Shown: positions 11,106-32,007 of the stretch, in pieces
Position numbering within the stretch: the first letter of the stretch is position 1
Layout of the letters: each line of letters begins with the position of its first letter
Origin: Escherichia phage DCP2
DNA length: 64,000 nucleotides
Sequence record: OR780565.1
Reading direction: 5' to 3' (one strand)
The notes under the pieces: generated by a model
What the model was told of the DNA's origin: nothing
Seen by the model: only the letters and a program-made list of their open reading frames with translations
Database searches by the model: none
Position numbers and translations under genes: made by a program

Positions 11106-12617
11106 TTATAAATTAACTGTTTTCATTACGTAATTAAATTTTTCATCTGCGTAGCGCTGAATACGATCAATGCCATGTTTTAAAAGATAGTTCAAATGAA
11201 CGTATTTCTTTTTCGTATTAGCAGATTTTGGCTTAACACCGCAATCATCAATGAGGTCCCAGACCGTTGCGATTGTTTTAGAACCATGCTTACGTAATAC
11301 GCGACCTATTGTTTGCAATACAATAATTTTAGATTTAACACCGTGTGCTAAAACAACGTGATGCAGATTTTTAACTGAAATACCAGTAGAAAATACACCA
11401 TAACTAGCTACTATAATTATTCCTTTACCGTTTTCAGCTAATGTTTTCATTACATTACGGGTTTCGGTATCAACTTCCCCTGATACGTAATAAACTTTAT
11501 CGTATTCATTTTTAATTAAATCGAAAATAGCTTTACCATGTGATACATGCTTAAACATGACAAAAGCGTTTTCATCTTTTTGTGCAAGTTTAATAGCTAA
11601 TTTAGCAATCCATTTATTTCTTTTACTGAGTCCAGTAATAATTTTTATTTCTTCTTGGTAAGTTTTTCCCTTTAATTTAGTAGTGAACTCATCGGGATAG
11701 CGAAGAAAAATACTATTAATTTTTAGCTCAGTTACTTGTCCATCTTCCATCAATTTAGAAGTCGTTACTGGCTTAAATATTTCACCAAACATTCCAACAT
11801 ACTGCATGATATTAGCTTTGCCATCACGTAATGAACCTGATAGACCGAATTTGAACATGCAGTTATTTAAACCTGATATGATAGATGAAATACTTTTTCC
11901 TGTAGCAAGATGGCATTCATCATTCATCATCATTCCAAACTGCGAGAACCATTCTTTTGGTTGTTTTACTACAGTTTGCCATGTACCAACAATTACCGGT
12001 GCATCATTTTTATATTTATCATCTTTTGATGCTCCGCCGCCGATTTTCTTTATCATTGCATGACTGAATAAACGATAATCAACAAAGTCATCAGCCATCT
12101 GAGTTGTTAAAGCGGTTGTTGGAACAATGATAAGAATTTTACCTTCATAATTTTCCAAATAATAACGTGCAAGCAAAGCTTGAATTAAAGATTTACCTGC
12201 GGATGTTGGAAGATTAAGAATTCTGCGACGATTAACTAATCCTTCGAACACTGCATCTTTTTGATACCAGTGCGGTTCAATTCTTTTATTTCCTGAATAG
12301 ATTTCTAATTTAGAAAGCCATTCATCAAAATCTTTTCTTGATAATTCTTCTTTTTCGTTAATTTGCGGGTCAATCCAGGCTTTATAGCCAAAATTATCAC
12401 AGAACTTTTTAATTTGCCCGACTAAGCCGAATGGAAGAAGGCGATTATAATCTAAAAGACGGATTCGTCCATCCCAGTGACCATATTTGTATTTCGGATT
12501 AAAACGATACCCGTCAGCTTCAAAGCTAAAGAAATCACGGAGTTCATGAAATGTACTTTCTTCACAATCAATTCTCACGTGACTAAAATCATAAAAATGT
12601 ACTTTAATGTCAGTCAT
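11106..12617 (-). CDS. uvsW: UvsW DNA/RNA helicase
   Basis: 503 aa; SF2 helicase motifs (PTSAGKS Walker A, DECH box); synteny. Confidence 0.85.
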   Translation of the reverse strand: MTDIKVHFYDFSHVRIDCEESTFHELRDFFSFEADGYRFNPKYKYGHWDGRIRLLDYNRLLPFGLVGQIKKFCDNFGYKAWIDPQINEKEELSRKDFDEWLSKLEIYSGNKRIEPHWYQKDAVFEGLVNRRRILNLPTSAGKSLIQALLARYYLENYEGKILIIVPTTALTTQMADDFVDYRLFSHAMIKKIGGGASKDDKYKNDAPVIVGTWQTVVKQPKEWFSQFGMMMNDECHLATGKSISSIISGLNNCMFKFGLSGSLRDGKANIMQYVGMFGEIFKPVTTSKLMEDGQVTELKINSIFLRYPDEFTTKLKGKTYQEEIKIITGLSKRNKWIAKLAIKLAQKDENAFVMFKHVSHGKAIFDLIKNEYDKVYYVSGEVDTETRNVMKTLAENGKGIIIVASYGVFSTGISVKNLHHVVLAHGVKSKIIVLQTIGRVLRKHGSKTIATVWDLIDDCGVKPKSANTKKKYVHLNYLLKHGIDRIQRYADEKFNYVMKTVNL

Positions 12618-12667
12618 GTCTAAATACCATGTAATAAATATATCTATATTTATACTGAGGAAATATT

Positions 12668-13348
12668 ATGATAGATAAAGATTATATTGCAGAGCTGAAG
12701 GCTCTTGATGATAATAAAGAAGCTAAAGCTAAATTAGCTGAATATGCTGAACAGTTTGGTATAAAGGTCAAAAAGAATAAATCTTTTGATAATATCGTTA
12801 TTGATATTGAAGAAGCCCTCCAGAAGCTCGCTAGTGAACCTATGCCAGAGACTGATGGGTTATCTATTAAAGACTTAATTGATGCTGCTGATGCCGCAGA
12901 AGGGTTAAAATATGACGATGAAGAAGTCAATCCAGAAGCAGCACTTCTGATTGATTCTCCGGTTAAATCTGACATTAAAATTGAAGTAGTAGAAACGGAT
13001 AAAATTCCTGAAAATACCGATGTTTTGATTGAAGATACTCCTTTTGTTGAAGAAAAATTCGAACAGGCTGTAGCTGAGATTATTGAATCTGAAAAGCCGT
13101 CTGTATTTACTCTTCCGGAAAACTTTAGTCCGAATCTTCAGCTGATTGGAAAAAATCCAGGATTCTGCACTGTTCCTTGGTGGATTTATCAGTGGATTGC
13201 TGAAACTCCGGATTGGAAATCTCACCCAACTAGTTTTGAACATGCGTCGGCACACCAAACTTTATTTAGCTTAATTTACTACATTAATCGTGACGGATCA
13301 GTTCTAATTCGTGAAACACGCAATTCTTCTTTCGTAACATTAAAATAA
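12668..13348 (+). CDS. inh: Inh-like protein (inhibitor of prohead protease)
   Basis: 226-aa acidic protein between uvsW and hoc; assignment is by position and size from memory. Confidence 0.55.
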   Translation: MIDKDYIAELKALDDNKEAKAKLAEYAEQFGIKVKKNKSFDNIVIDIEEALQKLASEPMPETDGLSIKDLIDAADAAEGLKYDDEEVNPEAALLIDSPVKSDIKIEVVETDKIPENTDVLIEDTPFVEEKFEQAVAEIIESEKPSVFTLPENFSPNLQLIGKNPGFCTVPWWIYQWIAETPDWKSHPTSFEHASAHQTLFSLIYYINRDGSVLIRETRNSSFVTLK

Positions 13349-16388: not shown

Positions 16389-17672
16389 TTATTCATCAAC
16401 GATAATTTTTGGTAGCTTAACACCTAATAAAACAGACAAATCTGAACGACCCGCCATTTTATCCATGTCTCCACCATCAATTATTCTTGCTTCTTTTTCA
16501 TCTTTTGCTACAGTGTAAGGATTTGCTGATAAAGCATATCTAACTAATAAACCGATAGATGGCTGCAAACTTTCTGGGTCAACTACAACTTTAAATGCAC
16601 CTACATGTTCAGGGTCATCTAAGTCAAGGCCTTCTGTATACGGAGCATAGAAAATTGATCCAACAATTTCTTTTTCACCGATATTTTCTACTACGCCAAC
16701 GATTACATAATCTAATGGGCTGTTAGTATCGCAATAAAGCGGTAAACCATTAGCTAAGAACCCATAGGCATTTTGTGAAAGATATTTATCATCTTCTGGT
16801 TTATGTTTTAACCAACCTGATGCAGCAAGAATCGCAGCAGCACGAGCTGAAGCAACACAGAACGTTGCTGTATAAGTTGATTCTTTTTGGATATGCGAAA
16901 CCATTTCACATACCATTCGGTATAATGAACGACCAGCTTCAGGTGCAGATGCATAACTCAAATCGATGAATCCAGTATCAGTAATTCCTGTAACTTTATA
17001 GCGTTTTGACACTGTAATCAAAGACTGCAGAATATCTTTATTGATTTCATCTGCCATTTCAGTTGCAAGCAAATCTTCCAAGAAATTAGGAGCATCGAAT
17101 CCATTTGCTTCTAAATCTTGTGCTAATTCAACTGTGATACCAGTTTTAAGTTTACGAGATTTAACTGCGGTTTGCCATTTATTAATCTGGAATCTAGCAT
17201 CCGCAATTTCACTATCAGAGCTTTCAAATTTGCTTGTTGACGCTGCGTCAGAAAATAGACGAACCTTTAAAAGAACAATTGCAATCTGAAGAGCTAATTC
17301 TAAATCGCTTTCTTCAATATCAGCAAATGGTGTATCTTCTAATACTTTATAAACGATATTATTATATTTGAATAAATCGCCCTTATTGAGAGTTAATTTA
17401 GACTCTTCTGTTAATTCTGTGATTTGTTCTCGGTCTACATATCCAGCTTCGCCAGCATAAGTAGCACCAGTTTTAAATGTAAATTCATTGTCTGGGTTAA
17501 GGTATTTGATACCATAAAAAGCAGCAACAGGTTGATTAGTTCTTTGCGTTGCTACAATGTCAGAATATATTAATTTAGTGGTAGCGCGAGTCAAAGCAAC
17601 GAGATTTGGGCGACCGATTGAGTTGCTATTCGTTGTGGTTGATTCGCGCAGAAGTTCGTTGATTTTAGCCAT
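16389..17672 (-). CDS. 24: gp24 head vertex protein
   Basis: 427 aa, same as T4 gp24; minus-strand TATAAATA at 17700-17707 upstream. Confidence 0.85.
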   Translation of the reverse strand: MAKINELLRESTTTNSNSIGRPNLVALTRATTKLIYSDIVATQRTNQPVAAFYGIKYLNPDNEFTFKTGATYAGEAGYVDREQITELTEESKLTLNKGDLFKYNNIVYKVLEDTPFADIEESDLELALQIAIVLLKVRLFSDAASTSKFESSDSEIADARFQINKWQTAVKSRKLKTGITVELAQDLEANGFDAPNFLEDLLATEMADEINKDILQSLITVSKRYKVTGITDTGFIDLSYASAPEAGRSLYRMVCEMVSHIQKESTYTATFCVASARAAAILAASGWLKHKPEDDKYLSQNAYGFLANGLPLYCDTNSPLDYVIVGVVENIGEKEIVGSIFYAPYTEGLDLDDPEHVGAFKVVVDPESLQPSIGLLVRYALSANPYTVAKDEKEARIIDGGDMDKMAGRSDLSVLLGVKLPKIIVDE

Positions 17673-17771
17673 TGTATTTTCCTTGTTGAAATATAATACT
17701 ATTTATAAAGTTATTTACAAGACCAAAGTAATATGATATTATATTCATATACAAATGGAGTGGTGTTTAAA

Positions 17772-18434
17772 ATGAAATATTTAATATATCAAATTACTAA
17801 TATCATCAATGGAAAAATTTACATCGGAGCTCATGCTACTCTTGACGAAAACGATGGTTATATGGGTTCTGGCGTAAACATCAAAAAATCCATCAAAAAA
17901 TATGGTATTCATAACTTTAAAAAAGAAATTCTTTATTCTTTCTCCTCATCTGAGGAGATGTATAAAATGGAAGCTTTACTAGTCAATGAGGAATTCGTTA
18001 TGAGAACTGATACTTATAATGCTGCTATTGGTGGTAGAGGAAATCCAGTTATAGTTCATTTGCAAGATCCTTCATATCGTAATATGTTATCAATGCGAAC
18101 AAAAGAAGGAATGACTGCGGAAGCTAAACGAAAAATATCAAAGGCAAAAACAGGCGTTAAGCAATCTGATGAAACTATCGCGAAGCGAGTTAAAGGGCGC
18201 AATGAATATTATAAAACACATGTTCATCCACGAAAAAATAAACCTATATCGATTTCACATCGTAAAGCTATTTCTGAAAAACTTAGCGGTATTAAAAAAT
18301 TTATTCCAATATGTATAAAGGGTGTCAAATTTGATAATCCTGATTACGCAGCGGAGCATTTTAAAGTTAGTCCTAAAACTATTCGCAATTGGATAAATGC
18401 GGATGATATGCCTGATTGCTATCGTATAAAATAG
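17772..18434 (+). CDS. segD: GIY-YIG homing endonuclease, SegD-like
   Basis: KYLIYQITNIINGKIYIGAH GIY-YIG motif; first ATG at 17772; lies between genes 24 and 23. Confidence 0.7.
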   Translation: MKYLIYQITNIINGKIYIGAHATLDENDGYMGSGVNIKKSIKKYGIHNFKKEILYSFSSSEEMYKMEALLVNEEFVMRTDTYNAAIGGRGNPVIVHLQDPSYRNMLSMRTKEGMTAEAKRKISKAKTGVKQSDETIAKRVKGRNEYYKTHVHPRKNKPISISHRKAISEKLSGIKKFIPICIKGVKFDNPDYAAEHFKVSPKTIRNWINADDMPDCYRIK

Positions 18435-18483: not shown

Positions 18484-20049
18484 TTAGATACCTTTAACAT
18501 ATACACGTCTAAAGTAAGCGTTTTTACCAAGGCTATTCAGAATAGAAGGCATACCGCTCTGGATGCGAGAAGCCGGAGCCTGAGCAGCGGATTCTGCAAA
18601 TGGGTTGATACCGATACCGTAACGAGTTTTGAATCCCATTACTGGTTGGAAGTTCTTCGGATCGGAACCACGCAGCGGAGTCAGAGCTACATATGGAGCA
18701 TAGTAAATACCAGCATCCATTTCGTTCGGACCTTTATAACCTACAGTGAAATAATCCTGTTTAGCATACTGGTCGATATATACACGGTATTTACCACCCA
18801 GAACACCCGCAAATACTGACTTGGTAGTATCAGTGTTAAAGCCGGTAGCCAGACCCTGTGCAGCATAAGAAATGCCAGTATCAACTGAAGCCAGAACGTT
18901 AACTACGTTACGGGAAGCGATAATGAAGTTACCTTCACCACGACCGGTCTGACGAGCAATTTCAACTGCTTCTTTGTCAATCTGGAACAACAGAGCTTTA
19001 AAGGATTCACCCGCCCAGCGAGCACCACGAATATCAATCGGATCCTGGAAGTCAAATACACCAGCTTTAGAACCCGGAGTCAGGGTCATACCAGATTTAC
19101 CAACCTGAGCGGAGTAGTTAATCCAATCAACAACTTCGCGGTTGATTTCCAGCATAATTTCTGTAGCCAGAATACCAGACAGTTCAGCATCAGCATCCAT
19201 ACCGTGAACAGCGCGAAGGTCTTGTGCTAATTCAATAGAGTAAGCAGCTTTCAGCTGACGAGATTTAGCTTCGATAACTTGTTTATCGATACGGAAGCCC
19301 ATTTCATTCCATGGGTTATCGGTAGAACCGTTGAAACCTTCCTGAAGTTCAGCGATAGAAGTAGCCATACCTTCAGCGATTTCTACCAGTACACCAGCTT
19401 CCATTTGTTTCTTAATTTCAGCATCTAATTTGTCTGCGTCAGATGCGCCTGAATCAATTTGTTTAGCTGCTGTAGCTTGCAGATATACTGTACCAGTTTC
19501 CTGGAAGAAGTGAGTGTAAATAGTTCCGACTTCAAGAGTATCACTTGCTTTCAAAGCAGCGAATTTCTTAGCAGCACCCTGACCAGAGAACATTGCATCT
19601 GGACCATACATTGGGTGGAATGCTTCTTTAGCGCCGGAAGCGATTGGATCTTTACCATATACTGCGCGCAGCGCGAATACCTGGCCAGTCGGGCTGTTCA
19701 TTGGCTGAACACCACAAATATCGAAAGCAATCAGGTTAGGAATAGCACGACGTACCATACCCATAACAGCTGGGCCAATCTGAGTTACTGCGCCAGAAGT
19801 CTGACCTGCGGCGATGTTGGTAGCATTGTAACCGTGGTCACCACCGATTTCAGCTTCTGTTAAGAAAGAACCGAATGCCTGAGCAATTTTTTCGTCTTTA
19901 TATTCCGGAGCTGTCTGGAAATCTTTTTCCTGGTTTTCAAAGATTTTAGCGATAATCGCTTGTTTGCTATTAGCAATTTCCGGTAAACCTTCACCTTCCA
20001 GTAATGGCTTCCATTTGTTCAAAAGTTCAGCTTTAGTTTTGATAGTCAT
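18484..20049 (-). CDS. 23: gp23 major capsid protein
   Basis: 521 aa, same as T4 gp23; MTIKTKAELLNKW N-terminus. Confidence 0.95.
   Translation of the reverse strand: MTIKTKAELLNKWKPLLEGEGLPEIANSKQAIIAKIFENQEKDFQTAPEYKDEKIAQAFGSFLTEAEIGGDHGYNATNIAAGQTSGAVTQIGPAVMGMVRRAIPNLIAFDICGVQPMNSPTGQVFALRAVYGKDPIASGAKEAFHPMYGPDAMFSGQGAAKKFAALKASDTLEVGTIYTHFFQETGTVYLQATAAKQIDSGASDADKLDAEIKKQMEAGVLVEIAEGMATSIAELQEGFNGSTDNPWNEMGFRIDKQVIEAKSRQLKAAYSIELAQDLRAVHGMDADAELSGILATEIMLEINREVVDWINYSAQVGKSGMTLTPGSKAGVFDFQDPIDIRGARWAGESFKALLFQIDKEAVEIARQTGRGEGNFIIASRNVVNVLASVDTGISYAAQGLATGFNTDTTKSVFAGVLGGKYRVYIDQYAKQDYFTVGYKGPNEMDAGIYYAPYVALTPLRGSDPKNFQPVMGFKTRYGIGINPFAESAAQAPASRIQSGMPSILNSLGKNAYFRRVYVKGI

Positions 20050-22212: not shown

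Positions 22213-22213
<1 letters not shown>
21971..22213 (-). CDS. 67: gp67 prohead core protein
   Basis: 80 aa with poly-acidic C-terminus ([14 protein letters not shown]...); same length as T4 gp67. Confidence 0.8.
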
Positions 22214-23838
<1,625 letters not shown>

Positions 23839-23870: not shown

Positions 23871-24362
23871 TTATTCCCAATAATCGAGAGCGAGAGTTAC
23901 TTCAAAGGTTTGGATTTCATTGTTTGAATCCCAATCTAATTGAAGTTCACCCACGTTAGTAGGCCACAGGCCTTTAATTTCGACTTCTTTTGTTACAGTT
24001 TTAGCGTCACGAGCATATTGGCGTACAATAGCACTCTTTTTATACTCTGCTGGTTTTCCACCAGTAATTTCGTTTCCTTGCCCAGCAGCAATGCTTTGCC
24101 AGTCAACAAACTTCTGACGTGCATCATGCGCCTCATCATTCATTACTGTAATAGTCCAGTCATCGAATGTACGATCGCCTGCTACGTTAATTTTACGGTT
24201 CATAAATCCGACTGGAATTTTTTCTACAATACCAGCTGGTAAAGCAGTGGCTTTACATTGGAATGTAAAATTTTGTCCAAGATAAGAAATTTCTACTTGG
24301 AATAAGTTAGGTCGAGCAAAATCACCAGATTCAAACGCTCGTGTTACATCATCTACAAACAT
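23871..24362 (-). CDS. 19: gp19 tail tube protein
   Basis: 163 aa, same as T4 gp19; minus-strand TATAAATA at 24377-24384 and 24436-24443. Confidence 0.85.
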   Translation of the reverse strand: MFVDDVTRAFESGDFARPNLFQVEISYLGQNFTFQCKATALPAGIVEKIPVGFMNRKINVAGDRTFDDWTITVMNDEAHDARQKFVDWQSIAAGQGNEITGGKPAEYKKSAIVRQYARDAKTVTKEVEIKGLWPTNVGELQLDWDSNNEIQTFEVTLALDYWE

Positions 24363-24469
24363 ATTAGCCTCTGTAGTATTTATATCCCTATGTTTAACCT
24401 AGGGCATATAGAATTAAAGAATTAAGGATATAGTGTATTTATATGGCCTGCCGAAACAGGCCTTTAGAA

Positions 24470-25027
24470 TCATTCTAGTAAATCCCAAAGATCTACGCTA
24501 TTTCTTTTTGACTTTTCTCGGTTAGATTCCCAAGTGATTATTTCTAAATTTTTTACGCTTGCTATAATTTCCGGCGGAATTAAATTATCAAATCCATATT
24601 TGATAGATACTTTATGATCGAGTTGGTAAGCACCTTCTACACCGCACACTCCTATTTTATCAGCATTCGGCCATTTTGACCAAATTTTTCTTATTTTAGC
24701 TGACTTAGTTATAGAATGAACTCTACTAGCATATAATGCAAACTCTTTTCTTTTACCAGTCCATCGAGGATGTTTATCGCCTCTTTGCCATGGTCTGCTT
24801 ATTCCGGATTGAACTTCCGAATTTTTAATAGCAACTTGTTTAATACTACATTTTCTACATGCATGTGTGGGTGTTCTATTTAAAAGCTGAATGCTTCTAC
24901 TAAATTTAATACCGCACAAATCACATTTAGCGTCAACTATTTTATTACTATTCTTTGGCATTAATTCTATTGGAACAGATACTGTATCATGATATGATAC
25001 TTTATATCCTAGAATTGTCGACCACAT
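24470..25027 (-). CDS. HNH homing endonuclease inserted between genes 18 and 19
   Basis: Cys-rich zinc-finger region plus HNH motif (QLDHKVSIKYGFDN...ITWESNREK); start set at the first ATG (MWSTI) because the track's TTG start overlaps the gene 18 terminator hairpin. Confidence 0.7.
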   Translation of the reverse strand: MWSTILGYKVSYHDTVSVPIELMPKNSNKIVDAKCDLCGIKFSRSIQLLNRTPTHACRKCSIKQVAIKNSEVQSGISRPWQRGDKHPRWTGKRKEFALYASRVHSITKSAKIRKIWSKWPNADKIGVCGVEGAYQLDHKVSIKYGFDNLIPPEIIASVKNLEIITWESNREKSKRNSVDLWDLLE

Positions 25028-25092
25028 TTTTGAATGATTTCTTGGTTTTATTGTAACAAACTTAGAAATAATCACTTGTTTCCTCGAGAATA

Positions 25093-25106
25093 GGGGCCGA
25101 AGCCCC
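25093..25106 (-). terminator. GGGGC-UUCG-GCCCC hairpin after gene 18
   Basis: Minus strand reads ggggcttcggcccc immediately 3' of the gp18 stop. Confidence 0.6.
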
Positions 25107-25114
25107 ACAATCAA

Positions 25115-27094
25115 TTAACCTGCAAGACCAGTTAACTCATCGAAATCTGCGCCAGTAGCAGTTGCGACGAAATTAAGTTGGATATAATTTATACTACGAG
25201 CCGGTTGGATGTAGAATGTTGCAACAAACTCATTTCTATCAATTACTGACGGAGTGTTATTTGTTGTATCGCAAACTACACGATATTCATAAATTCCACC
25301 GAGAGCTTTAATTCCCTGTAAGTATTGGGCAGTTTCTGTGCGGAATGATGAACGAGTAAACGCGTTGTTTAATTCGAACAAACGATATTTTGAACTACGT
25401 CCGATATTCGTTTTCAACATATTAAACAGACGACGAACGTTAATACGATCAAATGGAGAAGGAACAGAAGTAGCTGTTTTATCACCATATAATACGTAAC
25501 CATCACCACCTGTACCAGTTACTGGGTTGATAGCTTCTTGGTATAAACGGTCGCGCTGAGCTTGGCGAGTTTCAATAGCAAGTTTAATAACGTTAAGAAT
25601 CTGGCCGCGATTATAACCAGCTGGAGACATCCAAGTCTGAGAAACGTTATCGGTTCTTGCACATAAACCGGCAATATCAGCTGCTAATGGAACCCAACGA
25701 TTTACATCATTATATTTGTCATACTGATATTTGTAGTTACCATCAATTGCTGCGTAGGTTGAACTGATATTAAAGTTATTATCAGTGTATGAACCTGTTG
25801 CGGTTCTCCAATTGACTAAGTTATCAACAGCGCGAGTTACAGGAATTCCAACTACAGTTTCGCGCGGTGGTGAGCACAATACTAAGCAATCCTGGCGAGC
25901 ATCCCCAATTGAAACAACGTGTTTTTGGACAGTAGATGCTGTTTCCAAAGATTCACCGGCGCAAGAACCAGCAATAAACAGCTGAACGTCAACAGATTCA
26001 CGGTCAGCAAAGAAGTCCCAGGCTTCCATTAAATCTCCTGCTGTTACTTCAGCATTTGATGATAATCCACCAGACAGAGTTAAAATTCCAGAGAATCCTT
26101 CTGGCCAGTTTTGTGCAGTTGCGAAAATATATTCTGAACCACCTTTTGCGAAAAAGTCATCAATGTAGATGTTACTATCGTAAATATCTTTTTCACCACG
26201 CTTTGTTGAAAGAACAATACTTTGAACAATAGCATCATTACGGCGAACTATAATAGCGTATTGTGAATCAGTTTGTGGTCCATATCCAAACACTGCCTTA
26301 GCAGTAGATGCGCGTGTTCCGCCACCTGGATAAATTGGGAGTAATGCAGAAGCTCCTTTTGCGTAGTCAGCTTTAGATACGATTTCGATTTCGATTTTAT
26401 CGCCCAACTCGCCTGGATAAAGAGCTACTACTCCTGGAATTCCATATTTTTCGAGATTTGCTTGAAAGTCAACCGCTGTCATAGCAGCTTCAGCATTTTC
26501 AATTTCAGCTAATAAAATACCGGAATCAGTAATAATTTTTCCGAGAGTTATTACTGCAGCTAAGCCAGATGAAGACGAAGAAATTTCCGCGGTCCAGTTA
26601 GAACCTAGTTCTGGATATTCACCGACTTCTTTCGCTTTAGCGATAATTTTTGCGGTAGGAATATTAATTTTCTTAATTTTTCCATCAGCATCTACTTCGG
26701 TAATTTTACCTTCCGTTTCAATGTCTTCTGAAACATACTTAACTGTGATTTTATCTCCAACCGCGTAGTTACTACCTGGGGTAGAAATAGTGTATTCAAT
26801 ATTACCAGCAATCGGAGATGAGTTTTTAGCGGTATCTCTATCGACAGCACGCACAACTCGCAAATCATTTCCATATTGTAAGAAATTCATTGCAGACATA
26901 AAATAGTCAGCAGTTTCAGCTGTAGGTTGACCAAAAGTATTAACTAAATCTACTTCATTTGTAACCTGTTTGATCTGAAAAGCAGGACCCCACTGGAATT
27001 TACCGGCCAAAGCTGCTGTACCAGTAGAGTTATTAACCACGGTGCTTTGAACCGTAGTTTCTTTGAGCTCAATGCCCGGAGATAATAAAGTCAT
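25115..27094 (-). CDS. 18: gp18 contractile tail sheath
   Basis: 659 aa, same as T4 gp18; minus-strand TATAAATA at 27124-27131. Confidence 0.9.
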   Translation of the reverse strand: MTLLSPGIELKETTVQSTVVNNSTGTAALAGKFQWGPAFQIKQVTNEVDLVNTFGQPTAETADYFMSAMNFLQYGNDLRVVRAVDRDTAKNSSPIAGNIEYTISTPGSNYAVGDKITVKYVSEDIETEGKITEVDADGKIKKINIPTAKIIAKAKEVGEYPELGSNWTAEISSSSSGLAAVITLGKIITDSGILLAEIENAEAAMTAVDFQANLEKYGIPGVVALYPGELGDKIEIEIVSKADYAKGASALLPIYPGGGTRASTAKAVFGYGPQTDSQYAIIVRRNDAIVQSIVLSTKRGEKDIYDSNIYIDDFFAKGGSEYIFATAQNWPEGFSGILTLSGGLSSNAEVTAGDLMEAWDFFADRESVDVQLFIAGSCAGESLETASTVQKHVVSIGDARQDCLVLCSPPRETVVGIPVTRAVDNLVNWRTATGSYTDNNFNISSTYAAIDGNYKYQYDKYNDVNRWVPLAADIAGLCARTDNVSQTWMSPAGYNRGQILNVIKLAIETRQAQRDRLYQEAINPVTGTGGDGYVLYGDKTATSVPSPFDRINVRRLFNMLKTNIGRSSKYRLFELNNAFTRSSFRTETAQYLQGIKALGGIYEYRVVCDTTNNTPSVIDRNEFVATFYIQPARSINYIQLNFVATATGADFDELTGLAG

Positions 27095-27125
27095 TTTTAA
27101 TCCTCTTTAATATGCTTTAATATAT

Positions 27126-30263
<3,138 letters not shown>

Positions 30264-30305: not shown

Positions 30306-32007
<1,702 letters not shown>

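Follow-up and report, generated by a model that had tools for sequence, protein, structure and literature searches.

A candidate free-standing HNH homing endonuclease gene and a linked tail sheath haplotype at the gene 18/19 junction of a T6-like phage

Free-standing homing endonucleases are so well known in T-even phages, of which they are a textbook feature, that a further candidate between genes 18 and 19 (designated ORF X) is no surprise; what is new is that its family has so far gone unrecognised and that its domain order is unusual, with a zinc module first and the HNH domain last. The free-standing HNH homing endonucleases of T-even phages are represented by the Mob proteins, and the usual make-up of phage homing endonucleases is one catalytic module combined with many DNA-binding modules and encoded beside core genes (PMC2988022). 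T4 MobA-MobE, like ORF X, are free-standing, are intergenic beside a conserved gene and are patchily distributed among T-even relatives; in both cases an HNH-type catalytic domain is joined to a separate, presumed DNA-binding part. Flanking sequence is co-inherited with the Mob genes and may be so with ORF X. SegD, encoded between genes 23 and 24, resembles the candidate in being a selfish nuclease gene placed in a junction of the late structural cluster.

No paper was found on a gene between 18 and 19 in T-even phages or on the ORF X family. A 2010 census of homing genes in T4-related genomes has no 'other HNH' entry for RB3 or Acj61, both of which carry an ORF X homologue, so that at least two of the phages surveyed carry a member of the family that was not counted among their homing genes. 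The single 'other HNH' gene counted there for T6 could be T6ORF154, which lies between genes 13 and 14 and matches Pfam HNH_4.

The insertion between genes 18 and 19

The window (the whole stretch of 64,000 nt that was analysed) comes from a T6-like Tequatrovirus, and the region of the locus is 98-99% identical to SF2-1, SYGD1 and T6. Gene 18 (tail sheath protein, 659 aa; 25115-27094, minus strand, TAA stop at 25115-25117) encodes a protein 99% identical to T4 and T6 gp18 with five Pfam matches (Gp18_dom_I, Phage_sheath_1, Phage_sheath_1C, Gp18_domIII_N and Phage_sheath_domII), while gene 19 (tail tube protein, 163 aa; 23871-24362, minus strand) matches PF06841. An intact minus-strand ORF was present between these two genes, as the first-pass annotation had reported. 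ORF X occupies positions 24470-25075, with a GTG start at 25075 and a TGA stop at 24470-24472, and corresponds to T6ORF160. No paralogue of it was found within the window.

The first-pass annotation put the length of the ORF at about 185 aa, which corresponds to an ATG at 25027. The most likely start is instead the GTG, giving 201 aa, since all 38 aligned homologues open with MI(I/S/T)xK at a point 16 residues before that ATG, since a GAGGA ribosome-binding site (25081-25085, minus strand; kept in both insert types with minor variants) stands 6 nt before the GTG, and since T6ORF160 is annotated in GenBank in the 201-aa form; the 185-aa form is less likely. The N-terminal residues M-I-I/S-x-K-x-V (window 25040-25075) were kept across the family even where the rest of the N-terminal half could not be aligned, and the first 36 nt of ORF X were nearly identical between the two Tequatrovirus types. 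Possible reasons for this conservation are a structural strand, a signal for translation or an anchor for the recombination that would exchange cassettes. Homologues are generally filed as 'hypothetical protein'; occasional GenBank labels are 'type II restriction endonuclease', 'holin' and 'putative head morphogenesis protein', and the RB9 and Aplg8 records have no gene call; the 'holin' and 'head morphogenesis' labels look like propagated annotation errors.

In T4, genes 18 and 19 are adjacent, as the first-pass annotation had stated, with a spacer of 116 nt and no ORF X. The boundaries of the insertion were set by alignment of the window with T4, pSs-1 and UP19 and by the junctions of 23 Tequatrovirus loci, across which they were exact. 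The inserted segment is 645 nt long (24470-25114, minus strand) and consists of a hairpin, the ribosome-binding site and the complete ORF with its TGA; in T4 its place, directly behind the stop codon of gene 18, is taken by 9 nt (TACGGTGCA). The remaining 107 nt of the T4 spacer, which include a hairpin (GGCCTGTTTCGGCAGGCC) and two TATAAATA late-promoter boxes, are identical in the window.

Both hairpins and both late-promoter boxes were located where the first-pass annotation had placed them; the ownership that it gave to the hairpins was reversed. The hairpin GGCCUG(UUUCGG)CAGGCC at 24445-24462 (minus strand), previously assigned to ORF X, belongs with the two boxes of gene 19 (24436-24443 and 24377-24384, minus strand) to the native 18-19 spacer, because the empty T4 junction has all three with no base changed; the hairpin is also identical in 12 of the 12 empty junctions examined. 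The hairpin GGGGC(UUCG)GCCCC (GGGGCTTCGGCCCC; 25093-25106, minus strand), previously described as the terminator of gene 18, lies inside the insert just upstream of the ribosome-binding site, and was present in both insert types and in none of the empty junctions. Neither hairpin has a T-run and neither was therefore flagged by a terminator scan. Their loops are of the UUCG type, C(UUCG)G in the insert hairpin and U(UUCG)G in the native one, and T4 is known for an unusually stable class of UUCG hairpins in intercistronic regions. Both are more likely to be RNA stability or processing elements than terminators. The possibility that the insert hairpin hides the ribosome-binding site, as reported for mobE, was considered and rejected: GAGGA begins only 7 nt after the end of the hairpin but is not paired with it, and the region folded no more stably than shuffled sequences (z -0.19).

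A promoter belonging to ORF X was sought, and no TATAAATA box was found between the gene 18 stop and the ORF start; sigma-70-like matches were at chance level. The nearest late box upstream, located by pattern search, precedes gene 18 (27123-27130, minus strand) and is the sole candidate promoter for ORF X. The likeliest route of expression would therefore be read-through of the late gene 18 transcript.

Domain layout and N-terminal types

The first-pass annotation described ORF X as a Cys-rich zinc-finger region followed by a C-terminal HNH motif. The HNH assignment was supported by motif, predicted fold and the annotation of relatives; Pfam and NCBIfam did not confirm it. The N-terminal half (approximately residues 1-125; 24701-25075, minus strand) contains a CxxC...CxxC zinc module (C51, C54, C73 and C76) and varies between types, while the C-terminal domain (approximately residues 126-201; 24473-24700, minus strand) has the motif YQLDH(154)...N(176)L...W..N(185)RxK and a predicted beta-beta-alpha-metal fold characteristic of HNH nucleases. 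Residues Y150, Q151, D153, H154, S157, N176, L177, W182, N185, R186 and K188 were invariant in 38 full-length homologues, and the D, H, N and N of the motif, which make up the D-H/N/N pattern of HNH enzymes, were also invariant in 33 diverse sequences of the C-terminal domain. The last residue of the motif in ORF X is N, not H. The best structural matches of ORF X were to 4h9d (Gme HNH) and 5h0o (phage GVE2 HNH), both of which are small HNH endonucleases.

Sequence models recognised the protein poorly. ORF X had no match among the Pfam HNH families, for which one of the 38 members matched HNH_4 (E 0.078), and none in a scan of NCBIfam. Its best PHROG was 5104 ('unknown function'), while matches to homing endonuclease or HNH PHROGs were weak (E 0.0016-0.0025) and were located in the zinc-finger region. 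A PDB profile search with the C-terminal domain gave no HNH match; the leucine-rich-repeat proteins that it returned were discarded as an artefact, as the stretch IGxLxNLQxL mimics such a repeat. PDB sequence and profile matches of the N-terminal half were likewise set aside as noise from C2H2 or treble-clef zinc fingers, and weak treble-clef matches (DUF4379 and mS66) were recorded for the same half. The zinc module is a putative small DNA-binding or recognition domain. A profile search with the C-terminal domain brought in 85 further proteins, of which seven are named McrA by JGI and three carry NUMOD3 above the Pfam cut-off. As a DNA-binding motif, NUMOD3 is characteristic of homing endonucleases.

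Apart from scattered base differences, two stretches are near-identical between the T6 and pSs-1 types: one runs from the hairpin over the ribosome-binding site into the first dozen codons, the other covers the gene from approximately codon 128 onwards. Their HNH domains are 90% identical in protein sequence, while the N-terminal halves between these stretches are only 30% identical. The same pattern was seen at the level of Dhakavirus, where UP19 and QL01 are 99% identical in gp18 and gp19, 89% in the HNH half and 35% in the N-terminal half. N-terminal halves grouped by type across genera (60% identity for T6 and UP19; 53-57% for pSs-1 and either QL01 or S16), and a third type was found in VR26-like phages. 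Tequatrovirus and Dhakavirus each hold two or three N-terminal types, the T6-like and the pSs-1-like occurring in both, so that the types predate or cross genus boundaries. Over 253 pairs, identity of the HNH domain tracked that of gp18 and gp19 (r 0.8), as against r 0.4 for the N-terminal half.

Full-length homologues were found directly after the sheath gene in Tequatrovirus, Dhakavirus and Gelderlandvirus and in phages of Acinetobacter, Vibrio and Sinorhizobium. The same arrangement was seen in some 40 viral contigs from the environment, with a gp19 only 30-38% identical to that of the window. Relatives that share the HNH domain alone have other N-terminal regions, NUMOD3 among them, and were located after gp23 (six environmental loci), between gp47 and gp46 (four loci), and after gp44, gp41, nrdA and a 5-hmdU DNA kinase gene. 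In some environmental T4-like contigs (3608-7100 of L086 and 3425-5167 of L097), those following gp23 are large multi-domain versions of 550-580 aa with a treble-clef zinc finger (DUF4379) at the N-terminus; an adjoining 606-aa ORF combines DUF4379 with a CapR domain.

Distribution and the linked gene 18 haplotype

Among Tequatrovirus-level records of the phage collection, the junction was empty (T4-type) in 382, carried the T6 type of ORF X in 69 and carried the second type (pSs-1, RB3, RB9 and HP3) in 48; the gene is missing from T4 and from about three quarters of its close relatives. The first-pass annotation had taken ORF X to be mobile and had proposed that homologues universal at this position would argue otherwise; the comparison of T4-like phages showed the gene to be widespread at the junction and not universal, which does not refute that proposal of mobility.

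A hypervariable block of 33 nt, in which almost all differences are synonymous, was identified near the 3' end of gene 18 (25166-25198, minus strand; codons ARSINYIQLNFV), 51-83 nt upstream of the last base of the stop codon. Here the window differs from T4 at 14 positions, with a single amino-acid change (Q to T). Over the last 150 nt of gene 18, diversity was 0.011 within the T6 type, 0.004 within the second type and 0.062 among empty genomes, and divergence between occupied and empty genomes was 0.072-0.086, against a background of 0.02-0.05 elsewhere. Farther into gene 18 than approximately 300 nt, occupied genomes were as diverse among themselves (0.03-0.05) as empty genomes were, and the divergence of one group from the other was no greater, which indicates that occupied genomes do not form a single clone. 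The first 150 nt on the side of gene 19 were essentially invariant, with no differentiation. Two signals in the downstream genes were set aside: four gp19 sites (365-392) seemed to be associated with occupancy in an initial set of nine sequences but showed only a mild bump in the larger set, and a lower diversity of occupied genomes across gp20 was disregarded as one divergent empty locus (L013) inflates the comparison.

The block was linked to the type of insert. In a set of 23 loci, made up of related and not phylogenetically independent sequences, one haplotype was shared by all seven T6-type loci and another by all four second-type loci, while the T4 haplotype was present in 9 of 12 empty loci and in no occupied locus. 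All 69 T6-type records were at least 96.2% identical over a 234-nt query spanning the block and the junction, as compared with 80-90% identity over the 96-nt gene 18 part of that query for approximately 258 empty records. The association is imperfect, since the T6-type haplotype is also present in about 16 empty records and that of the second type in one or more empty loci (L115); such genomes may reflect loss of the gene or crossovers in the stretch of about 125 nt that both types share between the block and the N-terminal region, and across which the two co-vary. Three Dhakavirus-level loci with three different types had 21-25 differences in the last 90 nt of gene 18 and 1-6 in each of the next five 90-nt windows upstream.

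The gp18 C-terminal peptide encoded here, KPARSINYI(T/Q)LNFVAT...GADFDEL, is kept across genera, and conserved core-gene sequence is the usual target of a homing endonuclease. The type-linked haplotype is consistent with co-conversion, and the co-variation of block and cassette may represent a functional pairing of a recognition domain with a self-immune target. The 33-nt block would then be the target or self-immunity site, or else the core of a co-conversion tract; that it is the target of ORF X is a serious possibility, to which we give slightly less than even weight. As a candidate target it lies within an essential gene and differs almost only at synonymous sites.

Probable homing, its alternatives and comparison with known systems

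ORF X is very probably an HNH-fold protein encoded by a real, selected and sporadically present insertion. The explanation offered by the first-pass annotation, a free-standing HNH homing endonuclease, agrees with the precise insertion, the patchy distribution, the motif and fold, the purifying selection described below, the linked haplotype and the occurrence of HNH relatives beside core genes; the gene is present or absent at a fixed site, next to a core gene able to supply a target. Judged from these sequence features, ORF X probably works as a free-standing homing endonuclease of a distinct HNH subfamily at the gene 18/19 junction. As no promoter of its own was found, it would depend on late transcripts that read through from the promoter of gene 18, and translation would start at the GAGGA and GTG of the ORF itself. 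On co-infection with a relative lacking ORF X, the zinc module would bind the conserved 3' end of that phage's gene 18 and the HNH domain would then nick or cut there. Recombinational repair from the donor genome would copy ORF X together with the adjacent gene 18 haplotype into the recipient, while the donor's own haplotype would protect it from cutting.

Selection on the gene bears on two of the alternatives. Among seven T6-type copies pN/pS was 0.0-0.08, polymorphic codons comprising 21 synonymous and 4 replacement, and in 232 of the 239 phage records with a homologue, 80% or more of the query protein was aligned at a single place. Decayed copies, which are expected in the classic homing cycle, were rare; this rarity, the imperfect association of block and type and the lack of differentiation on the gene 19 side count against homing. 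Two split homologues were seen, one in Vibrio phage vB_VmeM-32 (2277-3345 of L009), where a 274-aa zinc-ribbon ORF is followed by a 107-aa HNH ORF in another frame, and one in Acinetobacter phage vB_AbaM_3014 (H89), where the match is broken into two parts, which lie under separate annotated ORFs; decay of the gene or frameshifts from sequencing may be the cause in these phages.

Strong purifying selection and so few broken copies would also be expected if ORF X were an accessory nuclease long resident in the T4 superfamily, passed on vertically at the 18/19 junction and lost many times (T4 being one case) without homing. Its role would be, for example, to cut the DNA of co-infecting competitor phages or of the host. 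The position of full-length homologues, which directly follow gp18 in 40-odd loci of phages as far apart as T-even phages and very distant T4-likes, and the tracking of gp18 and gp19 by the C-terminal domain fit such a history. Against it, one genus with flanks 95-99% identical has junctions that are empty, of type A or of type B on mixed backgrounds, the N-terminal types do not follow the phage phylogeny, and a one-sided, type-linked gene 18 haplotype is what homing with co-conversion predicts. An accessory nuclease that does not home is therefore considered unlikely, though a competitive benefit and homing are not mutually exclusive.

It is still more doubtful that ORF X has lost the ability to cut DNA and survives, domesticated or decaying, as what is left of a former homing endonuclease. 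The N in place of H at the end of the motif, the failure of any HNH sequence model to recognise the domain and the split or truncated relatives in the Vibrio and Acinetobacter phages could be read in this way, but the catalytic-type residues are invariant and the strong purifying selection speaks against a degenerate gene. A packaging-associated HNH nuclease, like those encoded beside the terminase genes of HK97-like phages that assist terminase cutting, would account for the place of ORF X in the cluster 16-17-18-X-19-20 between the terminase (gp17; 27126-28958, minus strand) and portal (gp20; 22213-23799, minus strand) genes, and for its resemblance to 4h9d and the phage-encoded 5h0o, relatives of which are presumably encoded beside terminase genes, but is highly improbable, as ORF X is absent from T4 and 382 other records and so is not needed for packaging, as T4-type gp17 carries a nuclease domain of its own, as the HNH relatives lie beside gp23, gp46/47, gp44, gp41 and nrdA and not beside terminase, and as interchangeable N-terminal types with linked gene 18 haplotypes would be left unexplained.

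A further reading, which we put forward tentatively and with rather little confidence, is that the 18/19 junction holds, in place of one simple selfish gene, an old multi-allelic system of recognition and immunity, in which at least three interchangeable N-terminal cassettes (T6-like, pSs-1-like and VR26-like) are attached to one locally homogenised HNH domain and each is paired with a synonymous 'password' in gene 18. If so, the types would persist by cutting and out-competing co-infecting relatives that have a different password, and the empty state would survive as a cheap third strategy.

Other selfish genes were noted in and around the late cluster. A 233-aa ORF (17733-18434, plus strand) between gp23 (18484-20049) and gp24 (16389-17672) matches SegE_GIY-YIG above the Pfam cut-off and GIY-YIG weakly; it stands at the segD site of T4 and T6 and is a second selfish nuclease gene in the same late cluster. 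The 19/20 junction holds a 192-193-aa ORF in a QL01-like locus (L026, 5385-5966) and in a T-even-type locus (L016, 4026-4604), starting MYCTY(L/I)TIYTG..YIGST and with weak matches to SegE_GIY-YIG and NUMOD3. This is probably a Seg-like homing gene, so that, with ORF X at 18/19, both junctions flanking gene 19 serve as landing sites. The window was also compared over 30306-32007 and 11106-13348 with the T6 locus (L120), with which it has the 18/19 insert in common. The HNH_4-positive T6ORF154, between genes 13 and 14 in T6, is not in the window, where gp14 (30306-31076) and gp13 (31078-32007) abut, and nor are segE and T6ORF179 of T6, uvsW being one intact ORF of 503 aa (11106-12617) beside inh. 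Homing-gene content is thus reshuffled between near-identical phages.

The PHROG 5104 family, filed as 'hypothetical protein', can now be given a reasoned, if predicted, function. The locus offers a clean natural experiment, with two or three types of recognition domain and an empty state in otherwise near-identical phages, so that T4, T6 and RB3-type laboratory phages could be used directly for tests of target prediction, self-immunity and marker exclusion.

Among described enzymes, the small HNH endonucleases 4h9d and 5h0o, the best structural matches, are single-domain proteins of approximately 90-100 residues that are 9-20% identical to ORF X and show no presence/absence insertion behaviour. 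I-HmuI and I-HmuII come from introns of Bacillus phages; I-HmuI (PDB 1u3e), a weak structural match to ORF X, is intron-encoded and has an N-terminal nuclease followed by DNA-binding modules of the NUMOD type. SegD shares with ORF X its kind of location, but its catalytic family is GIY-YIG and not HNH. The Mob family has its HNH domain at the N-terminus, whereas that of ORF X is at the C-terminus behind the zinc module. No sequence similarity between ORF X and MobA-E was detectable, which places it outside that family; unlike the Mob proteins, ORF X is missed by Pfam HNH models and sits in a late structural operon.
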